Source of the DNA: a virus
Lineage: Duplodnaviria > Caudoviricetes
Direction: 5' to 3' (one strand)
Virus record (IMG/VR): IMGVR_UViG_3300045999_011354
Span: 1,340 to 65,339 of that record
DNA length: 64,000 bases
In this document: positions 10,153 through 42,362 of the stretch, one piece after another
How positions within the stretch are numbered: the first letter of the stretch is position 1
How the letters are laid out: each line of letters opens with the position of its first letter
Program-made: the position numbers and the translations under genes
The notes under the pieces: model-generated
What the model saw: only the letters and a program-made list of their open reading frames with translations
Databases searched by the model: none
Told to the model about the DNA's origin: nothing

Positions 10153-13100
10153 ATGGCAGATCAGCGTATTACTCAGCTAACAGCACTGCCCAAAGCTGGG
10201 GTTTCGGCGACAGATGTGCTACCCATTGCGGATATTTCTGCAACAGAAACTAAAAAAGTTACAGCAAAAGATCTTGTTGCCGCCGGCATTGATCTTGTAG
10301 ATGCTGGTGAAATTGACCTATCAAAGCTCGATCAAAATAGTGTCACAAAGATTGGGACAGTTGCGATTGAGTCGCGTGCAATCGTAGCTGACAAACTGGC
10401 ACACAACAGCAGTGTCATTCTTTCTGTTATCACGCCCGCCTCTAACAATTTTGAGGGCAGAGGATACTTCAATACGTCGACTGGCAATATTCAGTTTTTC
10501 AATGGAACCGCTTATCAGCAGGTCGTCATGCCCACGGCGGGCATTGGAGATCTGCAGATAACAACGGGCAAGCTCGCGGACGGTGCTGTCACGACCGCAA
10601 AAGTAACGGCGCTTGGCACGGCGGCTTACGCAGATAACAGCGTCACCACCTTAAAGATCGCAGACGGTGCGATCACTGCCGTCAAGATTGCTGCGGACAG
10701 CATTACGGCGTCGCAGATTGCGCCCAGTGCGATTGGCGCATCAGAGCTAGCGGATAATGCTGTTGATACTGGATCTATTCAGGCGCTTGCTGTCACCGAA
10801 GCCAAGCTAGCGGATGGCGCTGTCACCACAAACAAGTTAGGCGACTTGGCCGTAACAAATGCCAAGATCGCTGCGTCCACAATTACGTACAGCAAGCTTA
10901 ATCTTGCTGACGGTTCGGTTCCTGGCGCAAAAATTACGTCAGACTCTATTACCAACGCACAGATCGGCACTGGAGCAGTTCAAACCAGCGAACTAGGGGA
11001 TTCTGCGGTTACAACAGCAAAAATTGCTGACGGCGCCGTCACTGCAGTCAAGATTGCGTCTGATTCGATTACTGCATCGCAAATTGCCGCAAACGCTGTT
11101 GGGTCTTCTGAGCTGGCAGATGATGCAGTTGACACCGGAAGCATTGTAAATCTTGCTGTTACAGAAGGAAAGATTGCCGCCGGGGCAGTTACAAATGCAA
11201 AACTTGGAGATCTTTCTGTTACCGATGGCAAGATCGCTAATGCAACAATCACATACGCAAAGCTAAACCTTTCTGACAACTCTGTTCCGGGCGCAAAAAT
11301 CACAAATGGGTCGATTACCTCGACTCAGCTCGCATCCGCTGCTGTTGAAACAGCAGAAATCGCCAATGATGCCGTCACCACGGCAAAGATTGCAGACGAT
11401 GCTGTAACTGCCGCAAAGCTTGGCCCTGAAGCTGTTGATTCAAGTGCTCTTGGCGCTGGTGCAGTTACAAATGCAAAAATTGGTTCTGCTGCTGTCACTT
11501 ACGACAAAATTCAGAATGTCAGCGCTACTGATCGACTGTTGGGGCGCTCCTCTGCTGGAGCTGGGTCGATTGAGGAGATCCCGCTGACCCCTGCAGGCCG
11601 CGCCCTGCTTGATGACGCCGACGCTACTGCTCAACGCGCCACGCTGGGCCTGGGCTCCCTTGCCACGCAGTCAGGCACCTTCTCTGGTACGCATAGCGGC
11701 ACCACGTCTGGGACGAACACGGGTGATCAGACAATCACGCTCACAGGCGACGTAACGGGCTCGGGAACGGGCTCATTCGCTGCCAGTATCAGCACTGCTG
11801 CTGTCACAGAAACAAAGATTGCCAGCAACGCTGTTACAACAACAAAGATTGCCGATGACAATGTTACTTCTGCAAAGCTTGCGGATAACTCTGCTGCAAT
11901 CGTTGCCGCATCGGTTCCCGCTGGCTCAGGTGCATTTGTAGGTCAGCAATGGATCAATACTGCTACTGCAATCGAATACACATGGGATGGCTCTCAGTGG
12001 CTGAGGCAGGCGTCTCTTGGGACGATTTCATTTACGGATTCGACGCCGCTTACATTTGCTGTTAGCTACCCAGATGCGTACAGCGCAACAGTTACGGCAA
12101 CTCTTGACATTCAGTCCGCCAATCGCATTTTTGCTGGCCCAACAACAGGATCTGACGCTGCGCCCACCTTCCGCGCAATTGTCCCCGCAGATCTACCAGA
12201 TGCAACCAGTGTCGCCAAGGGAATCATTTTGCCCGGTAGTGGATTAAGTATCAGCAGCGGCACGCTTAATCATAGCAACAGTACGACCGCTGGAACATAT
12301 ACAAAAGTTACCGTTGACGCGCAGGGTCATGTTTCGGCGGGTACGACTTTAATCGCTAGCGACGTTCCTGCGCTTGATACCAGCAAAATTACGACTGGAA
12401 CGTTTGCAACAGCAATGCTTGCAAATGATAGTGTAACTGCGGCCAAGCTCGCTGATTACTCAACCGCGCAAATTGGGTCATCTCTTCCAACTCCCGATTT
12501 CATTGGCCAGTTACATCTGAACCCGCTAGAGCGAACCGTCTACATGTGGGACGGCAACGTTTGGCAGCCTGTTGGTATTACCGCTGGTACCGTTATTTTT
12601 GCTGGTACGTATGACGCAAATACCAATCAAATTGCTTCTGTGACGAATGAGGGAAGCTCGCTTGGGTTGAGCGTTGGCAATCCACTACCAGCCGCAAGCA
12701 CAAACAACCAAAACTACTTTGTGATTGTTAGCAACGCTGGAACTGGTACAAGTCCAGCCCCGACCGTTGGACTGCTTCCGCCGGACCTTGTGCTTTCAAC
12801 TGGAACAGCTTGGGTGCGAATTGAGTCGTCTGACGCTTACATTGCACAGGTTGCGACTCAGGTTTCCTTCACGCCCGCCGGTCAAATTTCCAGCACCAAC
12901 GTGCAGGCGGCAATTGAAGAAGTAAGTAGTGAATGCCGCAATGCGACAAATATCACTAGCGGAACTCTTGCTGCAACCGTTGGTGGGACCGGAATTACCA
13001 CATACGTAAAAGGTGATTTAATTGCTGGCTCGGGGACGAATACTCTTGCAAAGCTGGCGGTTGGCACAAATGGTTACGTACTAAAAGCAAACAGCAGCAC

Positions 13101-13332
13101 GGCTACCGGATTGCAATGGGCCGCCTACGACGCGCTTGTGACTGGTGGTGGCACGATGACGGGAAATCTCGGAATCGGGAGCGCTGCAACAATTGTTTTC
13201 GAGGGGGCGACAGATGATACATATGAAACTGTTCTTACGGTTATTGATCCGACCGCTGACAATACAATTTCTCTTCCGAACAGTAGCGGGACAATTGCGC
13301 TGACAAGTGATCTTGATGACGGAACTTTTTGA
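10153..13332 (+). CDS. Long tail fibre with decapeptide repeats
   Basis: Many IADGAVTTAK-type repeats; N-terminal ADQRITQLT motif. Confidence 0.8.
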   Translation: MADQRITQLTALPKAGVSATDVLPIADISATETKKVTAKDLVAAGIDLVDAGEIDLSKLDQNSVTKIGTVAIESRAIVADKLAHNSSVILSVITPASNNFEGRGYFNTSTGNIQFFNGTAYQQVVMPTAGIGDLQITTGKLADGAVTTAKVTALGTAAYADNSVTTLKIADGAITAVKIAADSITASQIAPSAIGASELADNAVDTGSIQALAVTEAKLADGAVTTNKLGDLAVTNAKIAASTITYSKLNLADGSVPGAKITSDSITNAQIGTGAVQTSELGDSAVTTAKIADGAVTAVKIASDSITASQIAANAVGSSELADDAVDTGSIVNLAVTEGKIAAGAVTNAKLGDLSVTDGKIANATITYAKLNLSDNSVPGAKITNGSITSTQLASAAVETAEIANDAVTTAKIADDAVTAAKLGPEAVDSSALGAGAVTNAKIGSAAVTYDKIQNVSATDRLLGRSSAGAGSIEEIPLTPAGRALLDDADATAQRATLGLGSLATQSGTFSGTHSGTTSGTNTGDQTITLTGDVTGSGTGSFAASISTAAVTETKIASNAVTTTKIADDNVTSAKLADNSAAIVAASVPAGSGAFVGQQWINTATAIEYTWDGSQWLRQASLGTISFTDSTPLTFAVSYPDAYSATVTATLDIQSANRIFAGPTTGSDAAPTFRAIVPADLPDATSVAKGIILPGSGLSISSGTLNHSNSTTAGTYTKVTVDAQGHVSAGTTLIASDVPALDTSKITTGTFATAMLANDSVTAAKLADYSTAQIGSSLPTPDFIGQLHLNPLERTVYMWDGNVWQPVGITAGTVIFAGTYDANTNQIASVTNEGSSLGLSVGNPLPAASTNNQNYFVIVSNAGTGTSPAPTVGLLPPDLVLSTGTAWVRIESSDAYIAQVATQVSFTPAGQISSTNVQAAIEEVSSECRNATNITSGTLAATVGGTGITTYVKGDLIAGSGTNTLAKLAVGTNGYVLKANSSTATGLQWAAYDALVTGGGTMTGNLGIGSAATIVFEGATDDTYETVLTVIDPTADNTISLPNSSGTIALTSDLDDGTF

Positions 13333-13386: not shown

Positions 13387-15918
13387 ATGTCCAACGCGAA
13401 TCCCCTGCAGCTTCTTCGTAGCAATACAGCAAACAAGCGCCCCGACCCGACTGCGCTCGCCGATGGTCGCCCGGCCGTCAACACTAACGCCGTGAGCCCT
13501 GGCCTGTTCTTCAAGGACAGCGCAGGGAATCTCGTCAAGGTTGGCCCGGTCCATGTGGGTACGACTGCTCCGAATGCCTCCCCGGCCAGCGGCGGCGCTA
13601 CCGGGAACAGCTTGGGTGAGCAGTGGCTTGACACCACCGGCGGCGTTTATGTGCTGAAGATCTGGGATGGTTCTGCGTGGCGCAGTGAAACAGGAACATT
13701 CGTGGACGCAAGTGGCGACACGATGACTGGGGCGCTCGTGATGGACAATCAACAGCAAGTGCGCTTCCGTGAAGTTACAGCAAATGGCACGAACTATATT
13801 GCACTTCAGGCGCCCGCATCTGTTGCCTCGGATAAGACAATCACGCTGCCTGACGTAAATGGTACTGTTGTTACGACTGGCGACACAGGAACTGTTACCT
13901 CAACGATGATCGCCGATGCGACAATTGTTGATGCAGATATTAGCGCTAGCGCTGAAATTGCAGTTAGCAAGCTCGCCGATGGAACCGCACGTCAACTGCT
14001 GCAGACTGACGCCGCTGGCACTGGCGTTGAATGGACAAGCAATGTTGATGTCCCAGGAACACTAGACGTAACTGGTGCAGCAACCTTCGATAGCACCGTT
14101 GCCGTTACGGGGGCACTTACAAAAAGCGGTAGCAATGTCGTAACTGTTGGTGATACTGGTACAGTTACATCGACGATGATCCTTGACGGAACTATCGTTA
14201 ATGCTGATGTGAATGCCAGTGCCGCAATCGCGGGCACCAAGATCAGCCCGGACTTCGGCAGTCAGAACGTCACCACAACAGGCACCAGCACGTCTGCCAG
14301 CTTCATCCCCACTAGCAGCGCCGTCCCAACCAACGGGGTCTATCTACCTGCGGCAAACAGCGTAGCCATCTCGACTAATGGCACTCAGCGTCTTCTCATC
14401 GAGGATGATGGTGATATCAATATCAATAGCGGATCATTCTTTTTTGATAACGGATTCAATCGTTTAGGCGTCGGCACGGTTACACCCGCCTATGAGCTAG
14501 AAGTTACATCTACAGGTGAAGCAGACATTCAAATTGACTCTGCCAGCACTTATGACGCAGCGTTGCGTTTTGCGGAAAACGGCACCAATGCCTTTACTAT
14601 TTATCACGACGCATCAGATTCTGCCCTGGTAATTTACGACAACACAAATACAACCGAACGCCTCCGCATCACATCGGACGGGAAATTAGGTCTGGGGACT
14701 AGTAGCCCTGGTTTTAAGTTAACTATTGAGGATGCTACGACACCCAGAATCCGCATCGGCGATGGTACCCGCCATTTGAATGTTGATGGCGGCTCCGCCA
14801 CTCAAAACGCAGCTATAGGAACAGATTACGCGGGATCTTTTGGTATTTACACGAATGGGGCCGCAAATACACGATTACATGTTACCTCGGCAGGTAACGT
14901 AGGGATTGGCACTACCAGCCCTGGTTCGCCTCTCACAATCGAGAGCAATGCTGGCAACCAAGTCAAAATCACATATCCATCGATTGCTTCATACTTTCTA
15001 AATGCAACATCTGGCGGTGACTTTGCAATCAATAAAGATGGCACAGAACGCGCCCGCATCGACAGCTCCGGCAGGCTCTTAATTGGCACGTCTACTGCCA
15101 AGAGCGGCACTAGATCACAGTACTCAAAATTTACCGTTCAAGGTAACAACCAGAGCACTGGCGATGGTGCTCAAATAAATCTTGCCAATAACACAAACGC
15201 GCCTAGCCTTAACACCGGCGATACTCTTGGTCAGATTATCTTTACAGATAATGGTCCTGGTGAGTACGGCAAGATTGCCTGCCAAATGGATGGAGCTGGC
15301 GCTGGAACGAATGACTATCCAGGCAGGCTAGTGTTCTCCACTACCGCCGACGGGGCGAGTTCTCCGACGGAGCGGATGAGGATTGGGAGCAACGGTGCCA
15401 TTTCACTTTCACCAAGCGGCACAACAAGAGGAGTTATTATCGGCAATGCTTTTTACGATCCTGTTAACGCAGCCGGAATACAGATTGCTAATTCAACTGG
15501 AACAGGACGTTCTCTGTCGGCAGTAAATGGTTCCGGCGCTCTGCAGGATAACTACATGAATCTTGGTGACCCTGCCACAAGGTGGGGCACTGTCTATGCA
15601 GCTACTGGCACCATCAACACTTCTGACGCAAACTTAAAGCAGGACGTTGAAGATCTTGATACGGCAGAGCTTAATGTGGCTAATGCTATTAAAGGATTGA
15701 TCAAAAAGTTCCGCTTTGTTGATGCTGTTGCTGAAAAAGGAAGCGATGCTCGCATCCATGTTGGCGTGATTGCCCAGGAAGTTGAACAAGCGTTTGTGGA
15801 CGAGGGCCTTGATCCGCGCCGCTACGGCTTGTTCTGCGAGGACACGCTGAAGGATGGCAGCAAGCGACTTGGCATCCGATACGACGAGCTACTGGCTTTT
15901 GTTGTCGCTGCTCTGTAG
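13387..15918 (+). CDS. Tail fibre / receptor-binding protein with C-terminal intramolecular chaperone (peptidase S74-like)
   Basis: Repeated ERLRI.S.G.VGIGT modules; C-terminal TSDANLKQD...GVIAQEV...GIRYDEL. Confidence 0.85.
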   Translation: MSNANPLQLLRSNTANKRPDPTALADGRPAVNTNAVSPGLFFKDSAGNLVKVGPVHVGTTAPNASPASGGATGNSLGEQWLDTTGGVYVLKIWDGSAWRSETGTFVDASGDTMTGALVMDNQQQVRFREVTANGTNYIALQAPASVASDKTITLPDVNGTVVTTGDTGTVTSTMIADATIVDADISASAEIAVSKLADGTARQLLQTDAAGTGVEWTSNVDVPGTLDVTGAATFDSTVAVTGALTKSGSNVVTVGDTGTVTSTMILDGTIVNADVNASAAIAGTKISPDFGSQNVTTTGTSTSASFIPTSSAVPTNGVYLPAANSVAISTNGTQRLLIEDDGDININSGSFFFDNGFNRLGVGTVTPAYELEVTSTGEADIQIDSASTYDAALRFAENGTNAFTIYHDASDSALVIYDNTNTTERLRITSDGKLGLGTSSPGFKLTIEDATTPRIRIGDGTRHLNVDGGSATQNAAIGTDYAGSFGIYTNGAANTRLHVTSAGNVGIGTTSPGSPLTIESNAGNQVKITYPSIASYFLNATSGGDFAINKDGTERARIDSSGRLLIGTSTAKSGTRSQYSKFTVQGNNQSTGDGAQINLANNTNAPSLNTGDTLGQIIFTDNGPGEYGKIACQMDGAGAGTNDYPGRLVFSTTADGASSPTERMRIGSNGAISLSPSGTTRGVIIGNAFYDPVNAAGIQIANSTGTGRSLSAVNGSGALQDNYMNLGDPATRWGTVYAATGTINTSDANLKQDVEDLDTAELNVANAIKGLIKKFRFVDAVAEKGSDARIHVGVIAQEVEQAFVDEGLDPRRYGLFCEDTLKDGSKRLGIRYDELLAFVVAAL

Positions 15919-20364: not shown

Positions 20365-20640
20365 ATGAAAGGCCTTCTCGTACAACTCGCAAAGATTCTG
20401 CTAAAGCTCGCACTTGACAAAGCAGTTAGAGAGGCATTGCCGGTCATTTACGAAAAACTTGATATTTCAGTACCTGTTGCAATCGTCAATGGCGCACCGC
20501 CCGCTGTTATCGAATCTGAAATCACGTATCTTGCGAAAAAATTCACAAGAGATACGGTTCCCGATAGCACGATTGAAGCACTAGCATTGCTTTACAACCC
20601 CATCAAAAACGCTGTTCGCACACAGCGCAGGCAACGATGA
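20365..20640 (+). CDS. Hypothetical protein in the lysis cassette
   Basis: Coupled to the endolysin by an ATGA overlap. Confidence 0.5.
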   Translation: MKGLLVQLAKILLKLALDKAVREALPVIYEKLDISVPVAIVNGAPPAVIESEITYLAKKFTRDTVPDSTIEALALLYNPIKNAVRTQRRQR

Positions 20641-21716
20641 GTGATTTTCTTAACGCCGCACGTTTCACTGACAAGAGCAACAGACTGCCGCATCAAGACG
20701 CTGCTTGGCGATGGGCCTGGGAGCGTCTGAGCGAGGATGAGCGCAAGCAATTCTTTGAGATGTTTCGAGCTGCGCCCGAACCTAAGGAGCCGCTCCCTGC
20801 GCCCTGGCTAGCTCCTGCGCTGCAGATCATCAAGACCTGGGAGGGTTGCCGCCTGGAGGCTTACCGATGCCCAGCGGGCGTCCCCACGATCGGGTACGGG
20901 GCTACTCGCATGATCGACGGCCCAGTGCGAATGGGCGACAAGATCACACAGGAAATGGCAGAAGAGCTGCTAGAAAATCAAGTTGTTAATTTATTCGCAC
21001 CTGGACTTTTTTCACTTCTCCCAATGATGAAGAAGTGGAAGCCGAATCAACAGGCGGCACTGATAAGCTGGGCTTTCAATATAGGACTTGGTGCAGCAGA
21101 AGAATCTACACTTTGCAAACGAATCCTTGCCTCAGAAGATCCGACAAAAGTAGTCATCGAAGAACTGCCTCGCTGGAATAAAGCCGACGGCAAAGTTCTT
21201 GAAGGACTTGTTAGAAGAAGAAGGGCGGAAGTTGATCTATTCACTGGGTCAACGCAGGCGGCAATCAAAGATGAAACAACCGTCAGTCCAGTTAAAGTTA
21301 CTCCCTCTAGCCCATTCGCAACTCGCCTAACAGCGCACGTACAACTTGGTGAATTTGCGCTCTGGCAAGAAGAGCGTCGTTTTGCGCATCAATATCAAGT
21401 TGATACAGCAGCAGAGCTTGCAGCGTTTCTAGAGCGTGTTCGTGTTGCTTTTGGAAATAAAGCGATCATCATCACAAGCGGTTATAGATCTCCCGCAATT
21501 AATAAATCAGTTGGCGGAGCAAGTTCGTCTGAGCATTTGTTTGATGCGCCCGGCGTTGGAGCCGTTGATTTTTACGTCAAAGACGCAGACATTAAAGCCA
21601 TCGAGAATTGGTGCGATAAAAATTGGCCTTTTTCAGTTGGGTACGGAGCTGTAAAAGGATTCGTACACATCGGAACTAGAAAAGGGCGCCCTCGCGTACG
21701 CTGGGATTATAATTAA
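20637..21716 (+). CDS. Endolysin: GH24 lysozyme plus peptidase M15-like domain
   Basis: WEGCRLEAYRCPAGVPTIGYG...GLVRRRRAE (GH24); ITSGYRSPAINKSVGGASSSEHL...AVDF...FVHIG (M15). Confidence 0.9.
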   Translation: MSDFLNAARFTDKSNRLPHQDAAWRWAWERLSEDERKQFFEMFRAAPEPKEPLPAPWLAPALQIIKTWEGCRLEAYRCPAGVPTIGYGATRMIDGPVRMGDKITQEMAEELLENQVVNLFAPGLFSLLPMMKKWKPNQQAALISWAFNIGLGAAEESTLCKRILASEDPTKVVIEELPRWNKADGKVLEGLVRRRRAEVDLFTGSTQAAIKDETTVSPVKVTPSSPFATRLTAHVQLGEFALWQEERRFAHQYQVDTAAELAAFLERVRVAFGNKAIIITSGYRSPAINKSVGGASSSEHLFDAPGVGAVDFYVKDADIKAIENWCDKNWPFSVGYGAVKGFVHIGTRKGRPRVRWDYN

Positions 21717-22210
21717 AGCCAAGTCCAAGTTCTTTGAGATTTAATATTTGATATTGTAGTTCTACTTACACCATAGTCAATTGCTATTTCTTTTTGTGAC
21801 CTTACGTCTTTGCGTATGGCAATAACGTCTTGTTCTGTGAGCTTTGCTTGGCCATGCTTGGAGCCTCTTGAGTTTGTGCCATGACGTCTAGCGTCTTCGT
21901 AGTTTTCTTTGCAAGTATCCCATCGTAAGTTTATTAATCGGTTGTCAGCTCTGTTGCCATTAATGTGACAGGCTTGATAGTCTTTGCTTGGGCGAAATCC
22001 AGCAAAAGCTTCTAGAACCAAAGCATGACCATAAAACATTTTTTTATCACCACGTCTAGAAAGCAGATACAAAACATAGCCAATACACTTGTTCGGCTTG
22101 CTGCTTAATTCTTTGTATCTTATCAAACTAAAAACTCTTCCTTGATCCGAAACCTCATACAGCCCTTCGTAGCCGACAACAGGCTTCCATTGCTCTAAAA
22201 TACTGGTCAT
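21713..22210 (-). CDS. NUMOD4-HNH homing endonuclease
   Basis: EQWKPVVGYEGLYEVSDQGRV (NUMOD4); CHINGNRADNRLINLRW (HNH); C-terminal HTH. Confidence 0.9.
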   Translation of the reverse strand: MTSILEQWKPVVGYEGLYEVSDQGRVFSLIRYKELSSKPNKCIGYVLYLLSRRGDKKMFYGHALVLEAFAGFRPSKDYQACHINGNRADNRLINLRWDTCKENYEDARRHGTNSRGSKHGQAKLTEQDVIAIRKDVRSQKEIAIDYGVSRTTISNIKSQRTWTWL

Positions 22211-22229
22211 CAGCTCAGTCCTTGTGAGT

Positions 22230-22263
22230 TGGTCACGCTTCAGGGGTTGCAGCCCGCTGAAGC
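22230..22263 (-). promoter_or_regulatory. Bulged-C leader hairpin plus TGACCA, copy 2
   Basis: Minus strand reads GCTTCAG-C-GGG-CTGCAA-CCC-CTGAAGC-GTGACCA, upstream of the HNH start. Confidence 0.6.
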
Positions 22264-22284
22264 ACACCCATGCTATCACCAAAA

Positions 22285-23175
22285 TCAGCAGGTTCTAAGC
22301 TCTTTTCTTACTTTTAGCAAAAGCGCACATCTGTTAAGCCCATTCTGTTCTATCTTCTGCAATCTTCCACGCGACAACCCAGTCGCCTCGCATATATCCT
22401 TCCAGGGCGTTGGTGGATCTTTTGCGCGTTCAAGTACAACCATTTTTGTCATCTCATCTAAATAGCTTTCTATCGCCGCGTACGCATCTTCAATATTTGC
22501 GCGATTTTCTGCGTCTTCAATTGTATTTGAGTTTTTCTCATCCGCAATAATTTCAATCAAAAACGAACTATCCTCTGATTCATTCGCCTTTCTGTCGAGA
22601 CTTGTTAGTGCGCGTGGCGCGTTGGTTGCAATTTGTATTTCATCTGGTGTTAGATTTGAGTGCTCAGACAACTCTTCAAGTGTCGGCTCGCGTCCAAATT
22701 GCTTGCTAAATTCTTCAACTGTTTTCCTTATTTTGAATGTTGAATCATGTATTCCGATCGGGAGGCGAATTGTTAGATCAATGCACTGCATGGATCTTTG
22801 TATCGCCTGCCTGATCCACCAGTAAGCATAAGTGCTCATCGCGTATCCACGAGTCGGATCAAATTTTTCAACAGCTCGCGCTAGTCCGACATTACCTTCT
22901 TGCACGAGATCCATAAGATCAAGCGTCGTGCAACGATTTGTGTATTTTCTAGCAATATTAACGACTAATCTTAAGTTGCACTTAATAAATTTTTCTCTCG
23001 CCCTTTTTCCGATTCTTGCAATTTTTTTCTCTTCTTCTGTGTATGTTGATTCGTCTTTGTCGCGTATCAGCATCCATGCCTGCACCTGCGTGCCAAGCAT
23101 CACCTCCTGCGCTTTCGTGAGCAGGGGATAGCGTCCTATCTCATTGAGGTAGGTCTGTGTTGCATCACGTGTCAT
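22285..23175 (-). CDS. RpoD/sigma70-family RNA polymerase sigma factor
   Basis: YLNEIGRYPLLT, NLRLVVNIA, DLVQEGNVGL.RAVEKFDPTRGY..STYAYWWIRQAI. Confidence 0.95.
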   Translation of the reverse strand: MTRDATQTYLNEIGRYPLLTKAQEVMLGTQVQAWMLIRDKDESTYTEEEKKIARIGKRAREKFIKCNLRLVVNIARKYTNRCTTLDLMDLVQEGNVGLARAVEKFDPTRGYAMSTYAYWWIRQAIQRSMQCIDLTIRLPIGIHDSTFKIRKTVEEFSKQFGREPTLEELSEHSNLTPDEIQIATNAPRALTSLDRKANESEDSSFLIEIIADEKNSNTIEDAENRANIEDAYAAIESYLDEMTKMVVLERAKDPPTPWKDICEATGLSRGRLQKIEQNGLNRCALLLKVRKELRTC

Positions 23176-23335
23176 CGTCGTTTGAAGTGCCCTGTGAGAC
23201 TTGCAGGCAGTGCAGTTTCCATTGCGCTTGCCATTCCTGTGCATGATCCCACACCATCCCGATTCCGTAAACACGCCATTTCCAATTGTTTTCTTTGGAT
23301 GGCGCTTCGAGATAAGGCTTGTTACCGTCAGTCAT
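23165..23335 (-). CDS. Small Trp-rich hypothetical protein (56 aa)
   Basis: Hand translation MTDGNKPYLEAP...WRVYGIGMVWDHAQEWQAQWK; overlaps the sigma start. Confidence 0.55.
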   Translation of the reverse strand: MTDGNKPYLEAPSKENNWKWRVYGIGMVWDHAQEWQAQWKLHCLQVSQGTSNDDDT

Positions 23336-23593: not shown

Positions 23594-24115
23594 TTACACC
23601 CAGATGCTCTGACGCACTGTTTCGCTGTTGTTATAGTTTCCCTTGACGGCGTAACTAACGAGCGGTGCGTCTGACATGCGCTGAAAAACAACTTGTCCAA
23701 TCAAAAGGCCTGGATATAGAGGAATTGGATGAATTTGCCTGATGTTATGAAGCTCAAGCGTTAGGCGACTTCCGTGAAAGCCAGGGTCAATGTAAGCACT
23801 AAGCGCATGAGAATATCCTTCACGCCCACGGCTTGACTTAAGTGCAAACTGCCCAGCAATATCTTCAGGCATGTTGAAGATCTCTTCTGTGCAGGCGAGG
23901 CAAAATTGCCCTGCTCGCAACAACCAAGGGTTTTCTTTCGTAAAGCCAGAGAGTGGTGTGGCAATGAATGAATCTGTCGCAACGGATTCAATCATGATCT
24001 GATTCCCAAGTCGCACGTCATAGCTTGCTGGGTTGAGCTGCTCTGATCTATATGGCAGCATCATGGCCCGCTCTTTACACAGGCGCTCGATTTCGTGATC
24101 GCAGAGAATGCTCAT
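23594..24115 (-). CDS. dcd: dCTP deaminase
   Basis: QLNPASYDVRLG, KSSRGREG, YIDPGFHG.RLTLEL, IGQVVF. Confidence 0.92.
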   Translation of the reverse strand: MSILCDHEIERLCKERAMMLPYRSEQLNPASYDVRLGNQIMIESVATDSFIATPLSGFTKENPWLLRAGQFCLACTEEIFNMPEDIAGQFALKSSRGREGYSHALSAYIDPGFHGSRLTLELHNIRQIHPIPLYPGLLIGQVVFQRMSDAPLVSYAVKGNYNNSETVRQSIWV

Positions 24116-24118
24116 CTG

Positions 24119-24853
24119 TCAGGGCGCAAGTTTTGCTTTGTGAAGGCGTGTCTCTTTGTACCAATTTGCAATTTCTGGTGCCCAACTCTCAAAATGAGGC
24201 AGCATCATATCGCAGAGGGCTCTGATCTCATCTTGTGCATCAGCTTTGGCGCGCAGATCAAGAAAGTGCATCAATGCCCGTAGTGAAAAGCTCACCACAA
24301 AGTGCTGGCGGAAATCAAATGGAATCAGTCCCCTTGCGTGCTCCTCCGCGCGACCACTATCGACAGCAAGCTTGTAGCGAACCGCTGAGTCGATACAAAT
24401 GATTCGATCAACTTTACGTTGATCTTCTGTATATTCGTAAGACTTGCCCTGACGATCGCGATAAGTGCCAACGGGGCGCAAGTAAAAAACTTCTTCAATA
24501 TCCCGCTTGCTTGTTACTGCGTCAATGATTCGCTGCCCTGTATAACGCCCGGACTGCACATCAAAACTCAAGCCAACACGATGCGTGCGGGCTTGTTGCA
24601 TAACACTATGCGGAAACCAGCCGACATTGAACGTGATCGCCGGGTGCTCCAGTGGGCCATAGTGCCCGCGCTCACCTTTTAGTAAGTGGCGCACGACAAT
24701 CTCTCCCGCTTCTTTTTCTTCTGGCGAAGTTTCATGAAAGACAAACTCTTCGCTGTAGTCTTGGTGCATCGCGTACCAACACAGCGACTGAGGATTGGGC
24801 GTGCAGCTTAATACCTTGACCGTGAAGTACTCATCTTTGATGGCTTCTTTCAT
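24119..24853 (-). CDS. thyX: FAD-dependent thymidylate synthase
   Basis: GHYGPLEH, QARTHRVGLSFDVQSGRY, HFLDLRA...AQDEIR. Confidence 0.95.
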   Translation of the reverse strand: MKEAIKDEYFTVKVLSCTPNPQSLCWYAMHQDYSEEFVFHETSPEEKEAGEIVVRHLLKGERGHYGPLEHPAITFNVGWFPHSVMQQARTHRVGLSFDVQSGRYTGQRIIDAVTSKRDIEEVFYLRPVGTYRDRQGKSYEYTEDQRKVDRIICIDSAVRYKLAVDSGRAEEHARGLIPFDFRQHFVVSFSLRALMHFLDLRAKADAQDEIRALCDMMLPHFESWAPEIANWYKETRLHKAKLAP

Positions 24854-26474: not shown

Positions 26475-27017
26475 TTACGGCTTGAGTGCAAGCATCATTG
26501 CCGTAGCGGCTTCTTGATCAAGGCGTGACACCTTGACGTGAACCCCAGGGCCGTCAGACGGATCGCAAAACAGCTTCATGGAAGAAGCTGCAACGATCAA
26601 AGCGTCGTCATCATAACAGATTTTTGTCAACGCATCACCACACGCCCTGAGCAGCTTGTCTGCATCGCCCTTATTTGAATGAAACAAAGGGGCGCTGCGC
26701 TTAAGTGCGCCCTTACTGTCAAAATGAATCTTTGGGCGAGGCATGTAAAATAACAGTGACAATACAAATAACCCTTTCGTCTCCCAATTTGCAGGGCGCA
26801 TCAGTGTTGCCACGCGCCCCACGGAAGCCCTCCAGGCGTAGAGCCCCTTGGATTGCTCAGTCATGGCTACAGCAACGCGCTGACGGCCCTCTCTGTCGGT
26901 GTAGACGCGCCCAAAAGCATTCTTCGAGCCCTGTGTCTCGGGCTTGCCAGCGACAAAAAACGAATAGGACTGAATTGAATACTGCTCAAGTGTTGTCAAC
27001 AAGTTTGCCGTCATCAA
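26475..27017 (-). CDS. rusA: RusA-like Holliday junction resolvase
   Basis: GKPETQGSK, FYMPRPK, DADKLLRACGDALT...DDDALIV. Confidence 0.85.
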   Translation of the reverse strand: MMTANLLTTLEQYSIQSYSFFVAGKPETQGSKNAFGRVYTDREGRQRVAVAMTEQSKGLYAWRASVGRVATLMRPANWETKGLFVLSLLFYMPRPKIHFDSKGALKRSAPLFHSNKGDADKLLRACGDALTKICYDDDALIVAASSMKLFCDPSDGPGVHVKVSRLDQEAATAMMLALKP

Positions 27018-27727: not shown

Positions 27728-28282
27728 TTATTGAGCGATCAGCGTATTAAGCGTTGCGCGGAAATCATGAATTGTTCCACTGTTCTCAACGACTTGATCA
27801 AATCCATCCCAATCGTCAAGCCCACCTTCTGACTGATGCGACCCTGCATTGATCACAGAAGGTCGAACAATTTTCCACATTTCGCCCCCAATCTTTTTGA
27901 TCATTTCTGCTTCGTTTTGAAAACGAACATCATCAACAACAATTCTGCAGTCTTTATCACGAAAGCATGAAGACACGCGGTGCATCATGCAGTCGATCCA
28001 AATGCTCCGAGAAATGCACTCGCGCCCCCACTCTGTTCCAAGAGTTTGCAGTACATGACGAGGAGTTGTATTGATTTCCTGAACGAGCTTTTCCTTTTGC
28101 CCCCAAACCAGTGACATCGCCTGTTCTCTTGTGTAGCCAAGCGAAATAAAAAATTCTGTTCCCATGCGCTTGATGGGTTCTGCAAAGCTCATTGTGCGAT
28201 AGCCCTGCTGCGCCAGCACGTTCGCCGCAAGTGATTTTCCTGACTGAGCGGCGGGACTGTAAAACCCAATGAGTCTGTTCAC
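27728..28282 (-). CDS. Deoxynucleoside monophosphate kinase
   Basis: P-loop AQSGKS, SFAEPIK, PRHVLQTLGTEWGR, DDVRFQNE. Confidence 0.9.
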   Translation of the reverse strand: MNRLIGFYSPAAQSGKSLAANVLAQQGYRTMSFAEPIKRMGTEFFISLGYTREQAMSLVWGQKEKLVQEINTTPRHVLQTLGTEWGRECISRSIWIDCMMHRVSSCFRDKDCRIVVDDVRFQNEAEMIKKIGGEMWKIVRPSVINAGSHQSEGGLDDWDGFDQVVENSGTIHDFRATLNTLIAQ

Positions 28283-28545: not shown

Positions 28546-28902
28546 TCAGAACGGCATTTCGTCTTCTGCAGGGGCTTGAGAGCGAGATGGCATCTCTTGA
28601 CCTTGACGCTCAGGGATCGTGAAGTCAGTTGCATCCATGTAGATAGCAACGTAGTCAGTGCCGTCTTTTTTCTTTTTGGGTGAGACGGTTTTCACGCTTC
28701 CAACAAGAGTCACCTGGCGCCCGTCTTCCATGAACTTAGTGACGGTTTCAATCTTTTTGCCGTAGAAAGTGGCGTTGACGAAGTGAGTCTGTTTTCCGTT
28801 GGTAGTTTTAGAGCGGATACTGACAACGGCAGTTTTGCCGTAGTCGCCATCTTTTACTTGAACTTCGCCGGTCACATAACCGCTAGCAACAAGAGTGAGC
28901 AT
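28546..28902 (-). CDS. ssb: Single-stranded DNA-binding protein
   Basis: OB-fold pattern and acidic C-terminal EDEMPF. Confidence 0.85.
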   Translation of the reverse strand: MLTLVASGYVTGEVQVKDGDYGKTAVVSIRSKTTNGKQTHFVNATFYGKKIETVTKFMEDGRQVTLVGSVKTVSPKKKKDGTDYVAIYMDATDFTIPERQGQEMPSRSQAPAEDEMPF

Positions 28903-29663
28903 CAGAGTTCAGGCTCAATGAGCCTTGGAAATTGGGTGTTTTCGAGTGAGCAGTAAGCTTTGTAACGCTCGATAAATTCTTGCGCACAAGCTTTCAGCTC
29001 TTGCTTGTTCAGGACGTGAACGTGAGGTTCGCGCCAGTCGTAGCAAACACAGATTACACCCTGAGTTATCTCATTGTCAAGTTCGCCTCGCTTTACAGCA
29101 AGATTGTGAGCAAGCGCATATGCGGCGATCTGCACTTCAGCACTTTTGTAGTGCGACATTGATTTTGCTTTTTTCTTGACGCCTTCTTCTTTGTAGGAGC
29201 GCACTGTTTTCCAGTCCCAGATGCTGTACTGACCGTCCCAATGCAAGCGCAAGTCGGCAGTGCCTGCATAGCCAAGATGACAGTAAAGAGCTTCTTCCAT
29301 CAAAAAAGATGGAGCGCTGACTTCATTCTTGAAGTTTTCCTTTTTGATTAAATCAAGAACTGGCGACAGATGGGTGATGTATTCGTGAATGTTGTAATCC
29401 ATAATTTCATCCATCGTCGCGTGATCCATTTTATGTTTTTCTGCATCTTTCATGAACGACATTTCTACTTCAGCGTGAATGATCGTTCCCCTGCGCTGCG
29501 CCCGTTGCATAATGTCTTCCCAGTTGGGCTCCATCTGTCGCCAGATTTCAAGACCCTTTATTTTGTTTGGATCGAACAGTTCTGATGTCCTACCCAGAAC
29601 AGAGCTGACAGAAACGTATTCGTGATCGTCCTTGACGTAGAAGCCCGATTTAGGATGCGCCAT
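28902..29663 (-). CDS. PD-(D/E)XK exonuclease
   Basis: YVSVSSVL, RGTIIH, YAGTADL, DWKT, QIAAYA. Confidence 0.85.
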   Translation of the reverse strand: MAHPKSGFYVKDDHEYVSVSSVLGRTSELFDPNKIKGLEIWRQMEPNWEDIMQRAQRRGTIIHAEVEMSFMKDAEKHKMDHATMDEIMDYNIHEYITHLSPVLDLIKKENFKNEVSAPSFLMEEALYCHLGYAGTADLRLHWDGQYSIWDWKTVRSYKEEGVKKKAKSMSHYKSAEVQIAAYALAHNLAVKRGELDNEITQGVICVCYDWREPHVHVLNKQELKACAQEFIERYKAYCSLENTQFPRLIEPEL

Positions 29664-32647: not shown

Positions 32648-32893
32648 TTATTTCCAGCGCTCTTGTGTCGCTGGCTTTTCTTTTGCGTAGAACGCAAGAA
32701 TTTCTTTGTAATTCTGCTCTACCCATTCACGAACTGCTCTGTTGGCAATTCCAGAAATACTCATGTCAGTCGCCTGAGACAACTGAACAATTTTGTCAAA
32801 TACTGCCTGCGGGACAGTGAAAGTAATGCGATGAGCTGTCATTTGATCAGTCGTCTCCGAATGCGTCTTCAGCAGCTTTTGCAAGATCATCAA
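32648..32893 (-). CDS. Ribbon-helix-helix (CopG-like) DNA-binding protein
   Basis: RITFTVPQAVFDKI...SISGIANRAVREW; real start is probably later (MTAHR). Confidence 0.6.
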   Translation of the reverse strand: MMILQKLLKTHSETTDQMTAHRITFTVPQAVFDKIVQLSQATDMSISGIANRAVREWVEQNYKEILAFYAKEKPATQERWK

Positions 32894-33653
32894 TCGACTT
32901 GCTATTGATCTTGTCGCTGACGGGCTCAGGAATGATCTGTGCGCCCTTGCTGTTCTTGCCTTGATTGAACATCTTGATATGATCCTTGCCCACCGCTTTC
33001 AGTAGCGCCGTCGCTTTGTTTTCAGGGATTTCGGCGAGACTCAACGATTCAGTGATCGTGAGCACGGTTTTGATCCCGTATTGCGTGATGCCCAGATCCA
33101 TCAGCTTGGTTTCAAGCTTTTCGTTGACAGAGGTGGGCGCAAAGGCAGCGCTGGCAGGAAGGCCGCCCGGTGTCTCATCGACGGGCTTGCGAGCTGCAGG
33201 AGCTGACTTGGGCGCAGAGGTGCCAGCATCGCTTCCCAGGACGGCATCCAGGGCGTCGTGCTCGACGATCTCCATGGCCGTCACCCAGAGGTAGCGACGG
33301 AGGTAGGTCTGCACAGCGCCCAAGTTTTGAATCTCGTGCGCCCCCTTGAGAGCGGCACTGGACATGGGGCTAGAGATCTCGATGCAGTCGTCAGGGTTGC
33401 TGCAGTCGGTGACGGTCAGCGTGGCTTCTTCTTTGCCGTAGCTGACAACACCTGACAGCTCGAGAGACAAAAAGATTTCTTGAACAGTAGGAAGGAAGTC
33501 CCCAAGTTCAAAGTAATTGTACCCAGCGAATTTGTTTTTACCGCTTTTTGAAAGCTTTTTGCCCTGAAGCGCGATACGCGCCTGCATGAGTTTCTGATGA
33601 ACGGACATGCCGCCTTGTGTGTTGAACAGATGCAAGGTAGCATCAGATTGCAT
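32847..33653 (-). CDS. erf: ERF-family single-strand annealing recombinase
   Basis: KSGKNKFAGYNYFELGDFLP...IQNLGAVQTYLRRYLW. Confidence 0.85.
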   Translation of the reverse strand: MQSDATLHLFNTQGGMSVHQKLMQARIALQGKKLSKSGKNKFAGYNYFELGDFLPTVQEIFLSLELSGVVSYGKEEATLTVTDCSNPDDCIEISSPMSSAALKGAHEIQNLGAVQTYLRRYLWVTAMEIVEHDALDAVLGSDAGTSAPKSAPAARKPVDETPGGLPASAAFAPTSVNEKLETKLMDLGITQYGIKTVLTITESLSLAEIPENKATALLKAVGKDHIKMFNQGKNSKGAQIIPEPVSDKINSKSIDDLAKAAEDAFGDD

Positions 33654-41501: not shown

Positions 41502-42362
41502 ATGCCCAAAAGAATACCACTTTCCATTGGTCAAAAATTTGGCGAATGGATTGTGATTGGTGACGAGTTTAAGAAAAGTTCATTAAACAGCGTATTTCAT
41601 GTTCCCGTCAAATGTTCATGCGGAAATGAATCACTCATCTCAAAGGCTGCGTTAAAAAACAAAACGTCAACATGTTGCAAAGAATGCAGTTCCAAAAAAC
41701 GCAGGCGTATTAATATTTTTCCTGGTAAAAAATTTGGTAGTTGGACTGTTGTTTGCGAGTTAGAAGCAGATACCCGCTCCGGCAAGCCGGTCAGGCGGGT
41801 GCTCGCTCGTTGTTCTTGTGGTATAGAAAAAAATCTTGAACTGGTTGGATTGGTTCATGGCAAGTCTGTTTGCTGTTTGGATTGCTCAAATAAATTAAAA
41901 ACAGATCATGGAATGTCAAAATCGAGGGAGTATCAGGCGTGGAGGCATATGCTTAACAGATGTTTTGATCCGACAAATGCACGTTATGCGTATTATGGAG
42001 CCAGAGGTGTAACTGTTTGTGATAGATGGAATCCAGATAGAGGGGGGTCATTTCAAAATTTTTACCTTGACCTTGGCCCTCGTCCTTCTGCCGATCATCA
42101 ACTTGACAAAGAAATTTTTCATAAAGACAACATGATTTACGGTCCTGGTCTTTGTGGCTGGGCAACTAGGAGAGAAAATATAATGAGAAGAAGAAATACA
42201 ATTTATATTAAATTTTACGATAAAAGTACAACTCTTGCTGATCTCGCCAAAGAATACAAGCTGGACTACCATTTTCTTTATTACAAGATCGTTCTTTGCG
42301 GAAATAGCGCAGAGGAAGTTATTTCTAGTTTATCGACAAATCATCGCAAACGTACAAGTTAG
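41502..42362 (+). CDS. HNH-type homing endonuclease
   Basis: Duplicated GQKFG.W.V...CSCG domains; HGMSKSREYQAWRHMLNRC...YGARGVTVCDRW. Confidence 0.85.
   Translation: MPKRIPLSIGQKFGEWIVIGDEFKKSSLNSVFHVPVKCSCGNESLISKAALKNKTSTCCKECSSKKRRRINIFPGKKFGSWTVVCELEADTRSGKPVRRVLARCSCGIEKNLELVGLVHGKSVCCLDCSNKLKTDHGMSKSREYQAWRHMLNRCFDPTNARYAYYGARGVTVCDRWNPDRGGSFQNFYLDLGPRPSADHQLDKEIFHKDNMIYGPGLCGWATRRENIMRRRNTIYIKFYDKSTTLADLAKEYKLDYHFLYYKIVLCGNSAEEVISSLSTNHRKRTS

Follow-up and report, generated by a model that had tools for sequence, protein, structure and literature searches.

Do short DNA motifs that recur inside a phage tail-fibre gene mark the points at which parts of that gene are exchanged between genomes? 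The question is raised by a stretch of 64,000 nucleotides from a tailed phage (Caudoviricetes; IMG/VR record IMGVR_UViG_3300045999_011354, positions 1,340 to 65,339), hereafter the window, in which position 1 is the first letter of the stretch. One of its tail-fibre genes contains several copies of the quasi-palindrome TAG-N9-CTA, which a reading made from the sequence only had taken for swap points of receptor-binding modules. We find that five 15-nt boxes with this motif are constrained at their synonymous sites across homologous fibre genes and coincide with mosaic junctions between them. To the reading that the boxes are conserved in-frame short-homology linkers of a modular fibre family, exchanged by annealing recombination, we assign a probability of roughly 0.55. 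The features of the gene are as follows.

13387..15918, + strand: tail-fibre gene, a single open reading frame (ORF) of 843 aa matching PHROG tail-fibre families
14363..14377, + strand: box A, GTA GCC ATC TCG ACT followed by A, encoding VAISTN, at the junction of the N-terminal part and the first module
14465..14479, + strand: half-decayed B-type copy, TTA GGC GTC GGC ACG GTT, encoding LGVGTV, left arm present and right arm absent
14498..14512, + strand: exact TAG-N9-CTA encoding LEVTST, inside module A-B1, not a conserved box
14687..14701, + strand: box B1, TTA GGT CTG GGG ACT followed by A, encoding LGLGTS
14900..14914, + strand: box B2, GTA GGG ATT GGC ACT followed by A, encoding VGIGTT
15080..15094, + strand: box D, degenerate here, TTA ATT GGC ACG TCT followed by A, encoding LIGTST
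15329..15343, + strand: box E, CTA GTG TTC TCC ACT followed by A, encoding LVFSTT

The motif is exact at 14363, 14687, 14900 and 15329, and TAA-N9-CTA is found at 15080; for these five sites the coordinates, the common codon phase and the peptides had been given correctly. The homologous form of box D is TTA GTT GGC ACG TCT followed by A (LVGTSS), and a Val-to-Ile change (GTT to ATT) in the window converts its TAG to TAA. A further exact copy at 14498 had been overlooked, and all six sites lie in codon phase 1 of the ORF. This copy was considered as a sixth box and rejected, as there is no synonymous constraint at aa 371-375 and the site recurs only in the homologous locus L017, which shares the whole module with the window. 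It is probably a chance occurrence.

The window gene by itself does not justify a claim of motif enrichment. Across the whole window, 12 TAG-N9-CTA were counted against 6.04 expected (standard deviation (sd) 2.41; 12 reached in 2 of 100 shuffles), five of them in the fibre gene, where 5 of the 12 hexapeptides able to encode the motif carry it. Synonymous shuffling of the whole gene gave a mean of 0.62 sites, with P(>=5) = 1.5e-4. The G+C (guanine plus cytosine) fraction of the central region of the gene is 0.46-0.49 vs 0.52-0.63 upstream, and 9 of the 21 Leu codons there are NTA; a local shuffle in three blocks, which allows for both properties, gave a mean of 0.91 and P(>=5) = 9.5e-4. Local composition was thus rejected as an explanation: it weakens the window-only signal and fails to account for it. 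When the search was corrected for looking elsewhere, across 64 trinucleotides and spacers of 0-15, some equally extreme 3-nt inverted-arm motif was present in 18% of 400 shuffled genes, and because of this the window gene alone is unconvincing.

The homolog set consisted of the best 80 of 245 IMG/VR relatives, reduced by the removal of 21 near-duplicates to 59 non-redundant stop-to-stop fibre frames; most of these loci are short-read metagenome assemblies. The 59 frames contain 155 TAG-N9-CTA against 33.1 expected under synonymous shuffling (sd 5.4; 155 reached in 0 of 300 shuffles), and 151 of the 155 are in phase 1, on the recurring peptides VAISTN, LGLGTS, VGIGTT, LVGTSS and LVFSTT. Eleven of the 59 genes carry no TAG-N9-CTA. 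Modal codons were then counted after the window gene and 32 homologs of 29-67% protein identity to it had been aligned by codon (33 sequences), each count being given over the number of sequences that have the residue.

Box A: GTA 29/30, GCC 32/33, ATC 31/31, TCG 23/31, ACT 28/29
Box B1: NTA 23/25, GGT 21/31, CTG 23/23, GGG 30/32, ACT 30/31
Box B2: GTA 25/29, GGG 28/32, ATT 27/31, GGC 29/32, ACT 21/26
Box D: NTA 33/33, GTT 29/32, GGC 29/33, ACG 33/33, TCT 30/32
Box E: NTA 23/29, GTG 26/28, TTC 26/28, TCC 24/29, ACT 22/25

Averaged over the five boxes, the modal third-base share of codons 1 to 5 was 0.91, 0.87, 0.94, 0.88 and 0.91, against a background of 0.22-0.44. The codon just upstream of a box had a share of 0.60 and the one just downstream 0.66, with about 0.6-0.7 across the surrounding island of nucleotide similarity; such islands, 20-100 nt long, lie at the boxes within otherwise unalignable DNA and are conserved beyond what the protein needs. 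In a scan blind to the motif, 38 of 223 evaluable columns had a modal third-base share of at least 0.8, and runs of at least three such codons occurred only five times in the gene, once within each box. Synonymous positions of the boxes do not vary freely in the homologs, and the comparison supports the DNA-level constraint that the sequence-only reading had suspected. Two other points raised with that reading stand in part. The excess over a codon-shuffled null is found in the homologs but not, after the look-elsewhere correction, in the window gene alone, and its variable core is variable between sites, which share only the TAG and CT(A) ends, but not within a site, where each box has its own core that is as conserved as the arms.

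The boxes behave as discrete DNA elements. At class positions, 146 of 176 motif-competent hexapeptides carry the motif, vs 10 of 415 elsewhere in the same genes. Class-B copies, defined as [LVI]G[LIVM]GT peptides (n=94), are followed by a codon that starts with A in 73 cases, of which 57 have both arms, 7 one arm and 9 neither (odds ratio 43); copies with neither arm encode the same peptide with different codons throughout. The half-decayed copy at 14465 is among those whose next codon does not start with A. A mere codon habit, with ACT and NTA preferred for themselves, is ruled out by this all-or-none pattern and by the low filling elsewhere in the genes. The 173 in-phase boxes present in 66 sequences amount to only 33 distinct 15-mers, among which there are no chimeric cores between classes, and 120 of the 173 have one of the five consensus forms. 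In a sixth allele, GTA GGC ATA GGG ACT AGT (n=4), the arms and the peptide are kept and the core codons differ.

The same 15-mers occur in the isolates S-CBP3 (5), S-H1 (4), S-LBS1 (3), S-CBP4 (2), S-CBP42 (2) and KBS-S-2A (1), and recoded or partial copies only in S-CBP2 and S-RIP1. Fibre loci derived from metagenome-assembled genomes have boxes in 9 of 13 cases; the bin labels of these genomes (Clavibacter, Ignavibacteria, Burkholderiaceae and others) belong to short contigs and were not used as host evidence. The locus L094 has the box peptides and zero boxes, and like S-CBP2 it uses other codons for the same peptides. Since the same peptides occur with other codons in L094, S-CBP2 and the class-B copies that lack both arms, the protein does not need these codons. 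The boxes do not appear to be an artefact of assembly, a point that the clonal isolates answer in part.

The number of boxes differs among fibres. The 1652-aa frame of L008 has nine in the order A, B, B, D, B, B, D, E, D, with duplicated modules, as has L080, and S-CBP42 is limited to box A, a D-like copy 13 codons on, and E. From these arrangements, module number probably varies through unequal exchange between paralogous islands.

Shared tracts were obtained by comparing all fibre frames with one another by blastn. When tracts had to reach 90% identity and 120 nt, 11 of 30 right-hand ends fall no more than 15 nt after a box; the null, which counts ends up to 15 nt before or after a box, is about 3 of 41. 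Non-redundant pairs (at least 88%, at least 100 nt) gave 90 internal ends, of which 38 were no more than 30 nt away from an exact in-phase box, where the null expectation was 20.3 (sd 3.6, maximum 31), and a further 8 were close to a one-mismatch box. For tracts at least 97% identical, 9 of 11 ends are situated between -1 and +26 nt of a box; a site-A copy precedes the remaining two by 46 and 52 nt. Breakpoints thus coincide with the conserved stretches, and contigs match the window from box edge to box edge, as in-frame swap points had been predicted to do.

Individual pairs illustrate this. The window shares with L017 a tract of 349 nt (89%) from the first base of box A to 9 nt after B1, and with L038 one of 200 nt (92.5%) from box B2 (14899) to 4 nt after D (15098). 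L027 and L060 are 100% identical over 119 nt exactly between two boxes, with near-random similarity outside. A B1-B2 module tract was found for L043/L051, and D-E module tracts for L034/L078, L002/L021, L004/L080 and L037/window (15079-15385), so that A-B1, B1-B2, B2-D and D-E modules are all common to otherwise unrelated fibres. L002, which is near-isogenic with the window, matches it at 97.3% identity along 3984 nt, up to position 14370 within box A, and at 97.9% from 15919 onwards; the distal fibre between these positions is unrelated, a cassette replacement between near-isogenic genomes. The identity of L001 is 98.6% over 3157 nt ending at 14386. Among the isolates, the identity of S-CBP3 to S-CBP4 is 97% as far as 36 nt beyond box A, and a 530-nt tract common to S-CBP42 and S-RIP1 (89%) begins inside box E; the isolate junctions are found at A and E, and the remaining isolate similarity consists of 20-100-nt islands at the boxes.

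Two details of the window's own junctions were observed. The serine codon of box A (14371-14373) has two core alleles, TCG in 23 of 31 sequences and AGC in 6 of 31. Because the window has TCG and the near-isogenic L001 and L002 have AGC, the window junction lies within 9 nt to the left of this codon. The right junction of the cassette in L002 (5741-7166) and the window is the first base after the fibre stop codon, 15919, and a second type of linker may lie at the gene end or be intergenic.

Part of the fibre gene was also found in 20 runs from 15 studies, labelled inland or unspecified aquatic except for one marine; these runs contain shares of the sampled words that group around 0.4, 0.6 and 0.8, and the stretch as far as box A makes up 0.39 of the gene. 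Contigs of four runs, each from a different study, were aligned to the gene. Contig pieces run from 14686 to 14915 (B1 to B2, with one difference) or stop at 14370 or 14386, and contig record 11 of X2 starts at 14686. Loose contig ends lie at 14377, 14687, 14703, 14898/14899, 14915, 15098, 15319 and 15383/15385; since de Bruijn contigs break at shared repeats, these ends show box-bounded variants and not their origin. Summed contig depth is highest in bins of boxes and islands (e.g. 5355 in 15002-15086 in X9) and falls to 0 in several bins of modules; a lack of contig cover over some parts of the gene is no evidence of absence. The listed contig joints (15 of 70) are all skips, none of them inverted, although contigs hide rare variants, and the box order A, B, D, E is kept in all homologs apart from duplications.

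The favoured reading starts from a fibre family that, judging by its homologs, is common to Synechococcus-type cyanophages of different morphotypes and habitats. Each box codes for a short conserved strand of the fibre repeat (V/L-x-h-x-T/S) and lies on an island of similarity. Two phages, or a phage and a resident relative, would meet in one cell, where annealing recombination could pair a matching box and its island, and the fibre segment between two boxes, or from a box to the gene end, would be swapped. Because the boxes share codon phase and repeat position, each with its own core, such exchanges would be in frame and in register, and the class-specific cores would discourage out-of-register exchange between repeat units. 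The outcome would be distal fibres diversified in a combinatorial manner, most likely in host recognition, and the boxes would be kept by repeated exchange during co-infection together with selection at the level of lineages. Candidate genes for the enzymology, predicted from family matches, are present in the window, together with one nuclease gene that bears on an alternative discussed below.

26475..27017, - strand: RusA-like Holliday-junction resolvase (phrog_140, E 7.3e-21)
28902..29663, - strand: exonuclease (phrog_298, E 1.2e-20), likely partner of the annealing protein
32847..33653, - strand: Erf-like single-stranded-DNA-annealing protein (phrog_155, E 5.2e-20), candidate trans-acting function
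41502..42362, + strand: HNH endonuclease (phrog_374, E 1.7e-48), the only nuclease candidate in the window for a sequence-specific enzyme

Several observations weigh against this reading. As many as 44 of the 90 internal tract ends lie near no box, many of them 34-49 nt after box A, in its conserved downstream patch, and others in a conserved N-terminal patch without the motif. Because of these 44 ends, the boxes are best described, from the tract comparison, as the main junctions of the central region and not the sole ones. Short-read assemblies can break or mis-join at shared repeats, to which the isolates are only a partial answer, and that the modules set receptor binding or host range is assumed. 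The shape of the constraint is a more specific difficulty. The plateau is sharply 15 nt wide, which plain homology-driven exchange does not predict; codons of equally conserved residues beside it drift, the Leu codon before box D being NTA in 1 of 44 copies and the following Leu codon in 39 of 44. Nor do linkers account for the shared TAG and CT(A) ends: every class has A as the third base of codon 1 and T as that of codon 5 (agreement in 20 of 20 class pairs), and the core third bases match in only 9 of 30 class pairs, as counted from the third-base table. Moreover, box D retains TAG-N9-CTA though its place in the protein repeat differs by one codon from that of the B boxes. These points leave room for a sequence-specific factor.

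Such a factor could be a trans-acting enzyme of host or phage, a recombinase or a nicking or cutting endonuclease, that recognises TAG-N9-CT(A) and needs identical cores, so that only boxes of the same class recombine; we consider this possible and rather doubtful. It would fit the exact 15-nt span of the plateau, the agreement of the arms between classes and the spacing kept in the shifted box D, and also the location of all five motif-blind constrained runs in TAG-N9-CTA boxes, the arms retained around the recoded core of the sixth allele, and junctions that share only a box and about 10 nt (window/L001/L017 and L027/L060). The window encodes a DNA methyltransferase besides the HNH endonuclease, and nothing ties either gene to the boxes. 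Against a specific enzyme, copies whose next base is not A still keep ACT in 12 of 21 and NTA in 14 of 21 cases, and those that have lost one arm base keep the other 14 nt; chimeric cores are missing; and seven motif sites in the rest of the window, with about six expected window-wide, amount to no enrichment outside the fibre gene. The fibre family also occurs in unrelated phage types, T7-like podoviruses and siphoviruses, so that no shared phage enzyme is evident. A narrower version, which we hold to be unlikely, has an undescribed enzyme of picocyanobacteria and their phages acting inside the nine-base spacer of TAG-N9-CT(A), each class giving its own compatible ends or overlap. If true, it would be a natural heterospecific-site cassette exchange, in which modules of unrelated co-infecting phages rejoin only in the right order and frame, across phage families.

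The enzyme that the sequence-only reading had in mind was a tyrosine recombinase acting on shufflon-like sites, and this is not supported. Sites of tyrosine recombinases have inverted arms of about 7-13 bp around an overlap of 6-8 bp, and arms of 3 bp are far shorter than known recombinase arms. Extended dyad symmetry is absent from the five consensus 15-mers, in which only TAG and CTA are common to the classes and the flanks differ. That reading had seen no recombinase in the window, and this extends to the whole 65,339-bp record, 94% complete, in which there is no candidate for a tyrosine recombinase (PF00589; 14 of 14 control genomes matched) or a serine recombinase (PF00239; 12 of 14 controls matched), and hence no serine invertase beside the fibre gene. 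The cores fixed within each site, the one-arm copies that keep the rest of the box and the colinear modules all argue in the same direction, a host enzyme being still conceivable. In the freshwater siphovirus S-LBS1 (L085, 3855-4709), the fibre gene that carries the boxes is immediately followed by a tyrosine integrase gene, the sole such adjacency seen. This integrase was considered as the missing recombinase and rejected, being a single case; the S-LBS1 authors assign it to lysogeny, with an attachment (att) motif that is unrelated (PMC6157547).

Constraint on the mRNA or its translation offers a further, improbable, explanation, for example rare-codon pausing at a strand that nucleates folding or trimerisation, with junctions falling there as the only nucleotide-identical stretches. 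The boxes do encode the most conserved strand of each repeat, and their codons are often non-preferred (GTA 0.19-0.21, TTA and CTA 0.11 each, GGG 0.11, TCG 0.09 and ACG 0.18 of the codons of their amino acid). Yet one exact codon is kept, GTA and never the equally rare GTG or GTC; the pattern of the class-B copies is all-or-none; wholly different codons serve the same peptides in L094, S-CBP2 and several IMG/VR loci; and a 3-bp stem with a 9-nt loop would not form a stable RNA structure. It is very improbable, finally, that chance and paralogy suffice, the repeats descending from one unit that used NTA and ACT and the islands being merely slow-evolving DNA. The shuffled window genes that are equally extreme would agree with this, as would the paralogous repeat positions of A/E and B1/B2 and the fact that [V/L][G/A/V]xx[T/S][T/S/N] fixes 4 of the 6 arm bases. 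However, the excess in the homologs is nearly fivefold (155 vs 33), flanking synonymous sites of equally conserved residues are randomised, core third bases of paralogous classes are at a random level when all arm third bases agree, and junctions are enriched at the boxes. The isolates also speak against contamination or chimeric assembly having made the homolog loci recent copies of each other at the boxes.

Several known systems resemble the boxes. The His boxes of T-even distal tail fibres were reportedly proposed by Tetart, Desplats and Krisch in 1998 as sites of homologous recombination that swap specificity. As here, they are short conserved motifs inside fibre or adhesin genes that flank variable segments. 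His boxes are defined by their Gly/His-rich peptide; the present boxes differ in nucleotide identity at synonymous sites, in their 15-nt length, in their number of five per gene with own cores and shared ends, and in their occurrence in two morphotypes. In the R64 shufflon (Rci, sfx) and the Gin/Cin/Hin segments of Mu and P1, short in-gene repeats diversify the C-terminal, host-recognising part of a pilus or fibre, through inversion within one genome at 19-26-bp sites with a linked recombinase gene. Here, by contrast, there is no recombinase gene, the shared arms have 3 bp, and colinear modules are exchanged from one genome to another.

For coliphage tailspikes, the available text of one report describes DNA motifs conserved across genera around receptor-binding domains and proposes them as recombination hotspots (PMC10408124). 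They are, like the boxes, more conserved than their surroundings. According to the same text, they measure 44, 95 and 20 nt, have 63-81% mean identity, lie up- or downstream of one domain, and in one case are a terminator (PMC10408124). In contrast, we find five in-frame 15-mers in one gene, with about 90% modal codon share and junctions resolved to the box, including those of a near-isogenic pair. Relaxed recombination by Rad52-like proteins (Red-beta, RecT, Erf) is described as creating phage mosaics, and Erf/Exo pairs act efficiently on short and 78%-identical substrates; with short and diverged homologies, they and other Rad52-like recombinases perform far better than RecA, in the part of that paper open to us (PMC3945230). 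The homologies given there are hundreds of bp with perfect stretches of 49-298 bp, and this part describes no dedicated conserved linkers (PMC3945230). At some junctions here, the shared stretch is about 15-25 nt, and an Erf-like protein with an exonuclease and RusA would be the likely enzymology. Metaviromic islands of marine phages include fibre regions that under-recruit from metagenomes in comparison with the remaining genome, as stated in the accessible portion of the source (PMC3909814). These islands resemble the zero-depth module bins found here; as far as that portion goes, they describe a pattern of variability, not conserved junction elements.

No literature description of these boxes was found, subscription journals and supplementary files lying outside our reach, nor any occurrence of the peptide strings GIGTTSP, LVFSTT and VAISTNG in the searchable literature. 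The general concept is known, and what is known in principle is new here in its discreteness, synonymous constraint, shared ends and reach across phage families and habitats. Fibre mosaicism is usually described afterwards, with rare events of illegitimate or loosely homologous recombination held responsible; in the present case, recognisable 15-nt elements form the junctions, and they are common to podoviruses and siphoviruses from estuarine, marine and freshwater samples. They show clearly that something besides the encoded protein can constrain synonymous sites of a structural gene, and they offer a practical marker to delimit exchangeable fibre modules in cyanophage metagenomes. Whether selection keeps host-recognition genes recombinable, and by which mechanism, is a question testable in culturable systems (S-CBP3 and S-CBP4 on Synechococcus CB0101).

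The ORF 13387-15918 has phrog_9942 as its best PHROG tail-fibre match (E 8.5e-52), and the fibre is of the S74 type, with a Peptidase_S74 intramolecular-chaperone domain (PF13884) at its C-terminus (aa 746-807; E 4.1e-12, 46.6 bits vs a cut-off of 22). The PDB relatives 7y5s, 6eu4, 4uw8 and 3gw6 match over aa 604-840 only, the C-terminal chaperone region. An alignment-based AlphaFold2 model is all-beta, with a mean predicted local distance difference test score of 61 and a predicted template modelling score of 0.33, too weak for reading a fold of the central repeats. Nucleotide relatives of the gene among 50,697 phage records number only 23, all of them from cyanophages (20 named Synechococcus phage, two 'Cyanophage' and one uncultured). 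The best match is S-CBP4, a T7-like podovirus, with 22% of the fibre gene covered at 82% identity. The isolates other than S-LBS1, judged in part from their gene neighbours, are T7-like podoviruses, including S-CBP4, and siphoviruses. S-LBS1 is a siphovirus whose fibre gene is low in G+C (53.8% vs 60.2% for the genome), as given in the accessible text of its description (PMC6157547). A comparison of cyanopodoviruses reports the fibre gene as divergent and phylogenetically incongruent, and its accessible text has nothing further on it (PMC4646655).

The window is nearly the whole of a linear 65,339-bp virus record, for which CheckV gives 94% completeness. Neighbours of the fibre gene include a tape-measure protein, a J-like tail protein, a second fibre gene, an endolysin and a sigma factor, and by these genes the layout is siphovirus-like. 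The order of fibre gene, small ORFs, endolysin and opposite-strand sigma factor is common to the window (20637-23274) and the cyanosiphovirus KBS-S-2A (L082, 4863-6092), and because it is shared, it suggests that the phage belongs to the KBS-S-2A group of cyanosiphoviruses. The second fibre gene, upstream at 10153-13332 (1059 aa; phrog_892, seven matched stretches), has zero TAG-N9-CTA sites, and the upstream fibre genes of S-CBP4, S-CBP3 and KBS-S-2A have 0-1; in these genomes, the boxes are specific to the distal fibre gene. Genes for dCTP deaminase, thymidylate synthase and deoxynucleoside monophosphate kinase (23594-24853 and 27728-28282, - strand) cluster with the recombination genes and could serve nucleotide-pool remodelling or a modified base in the phage DNA.

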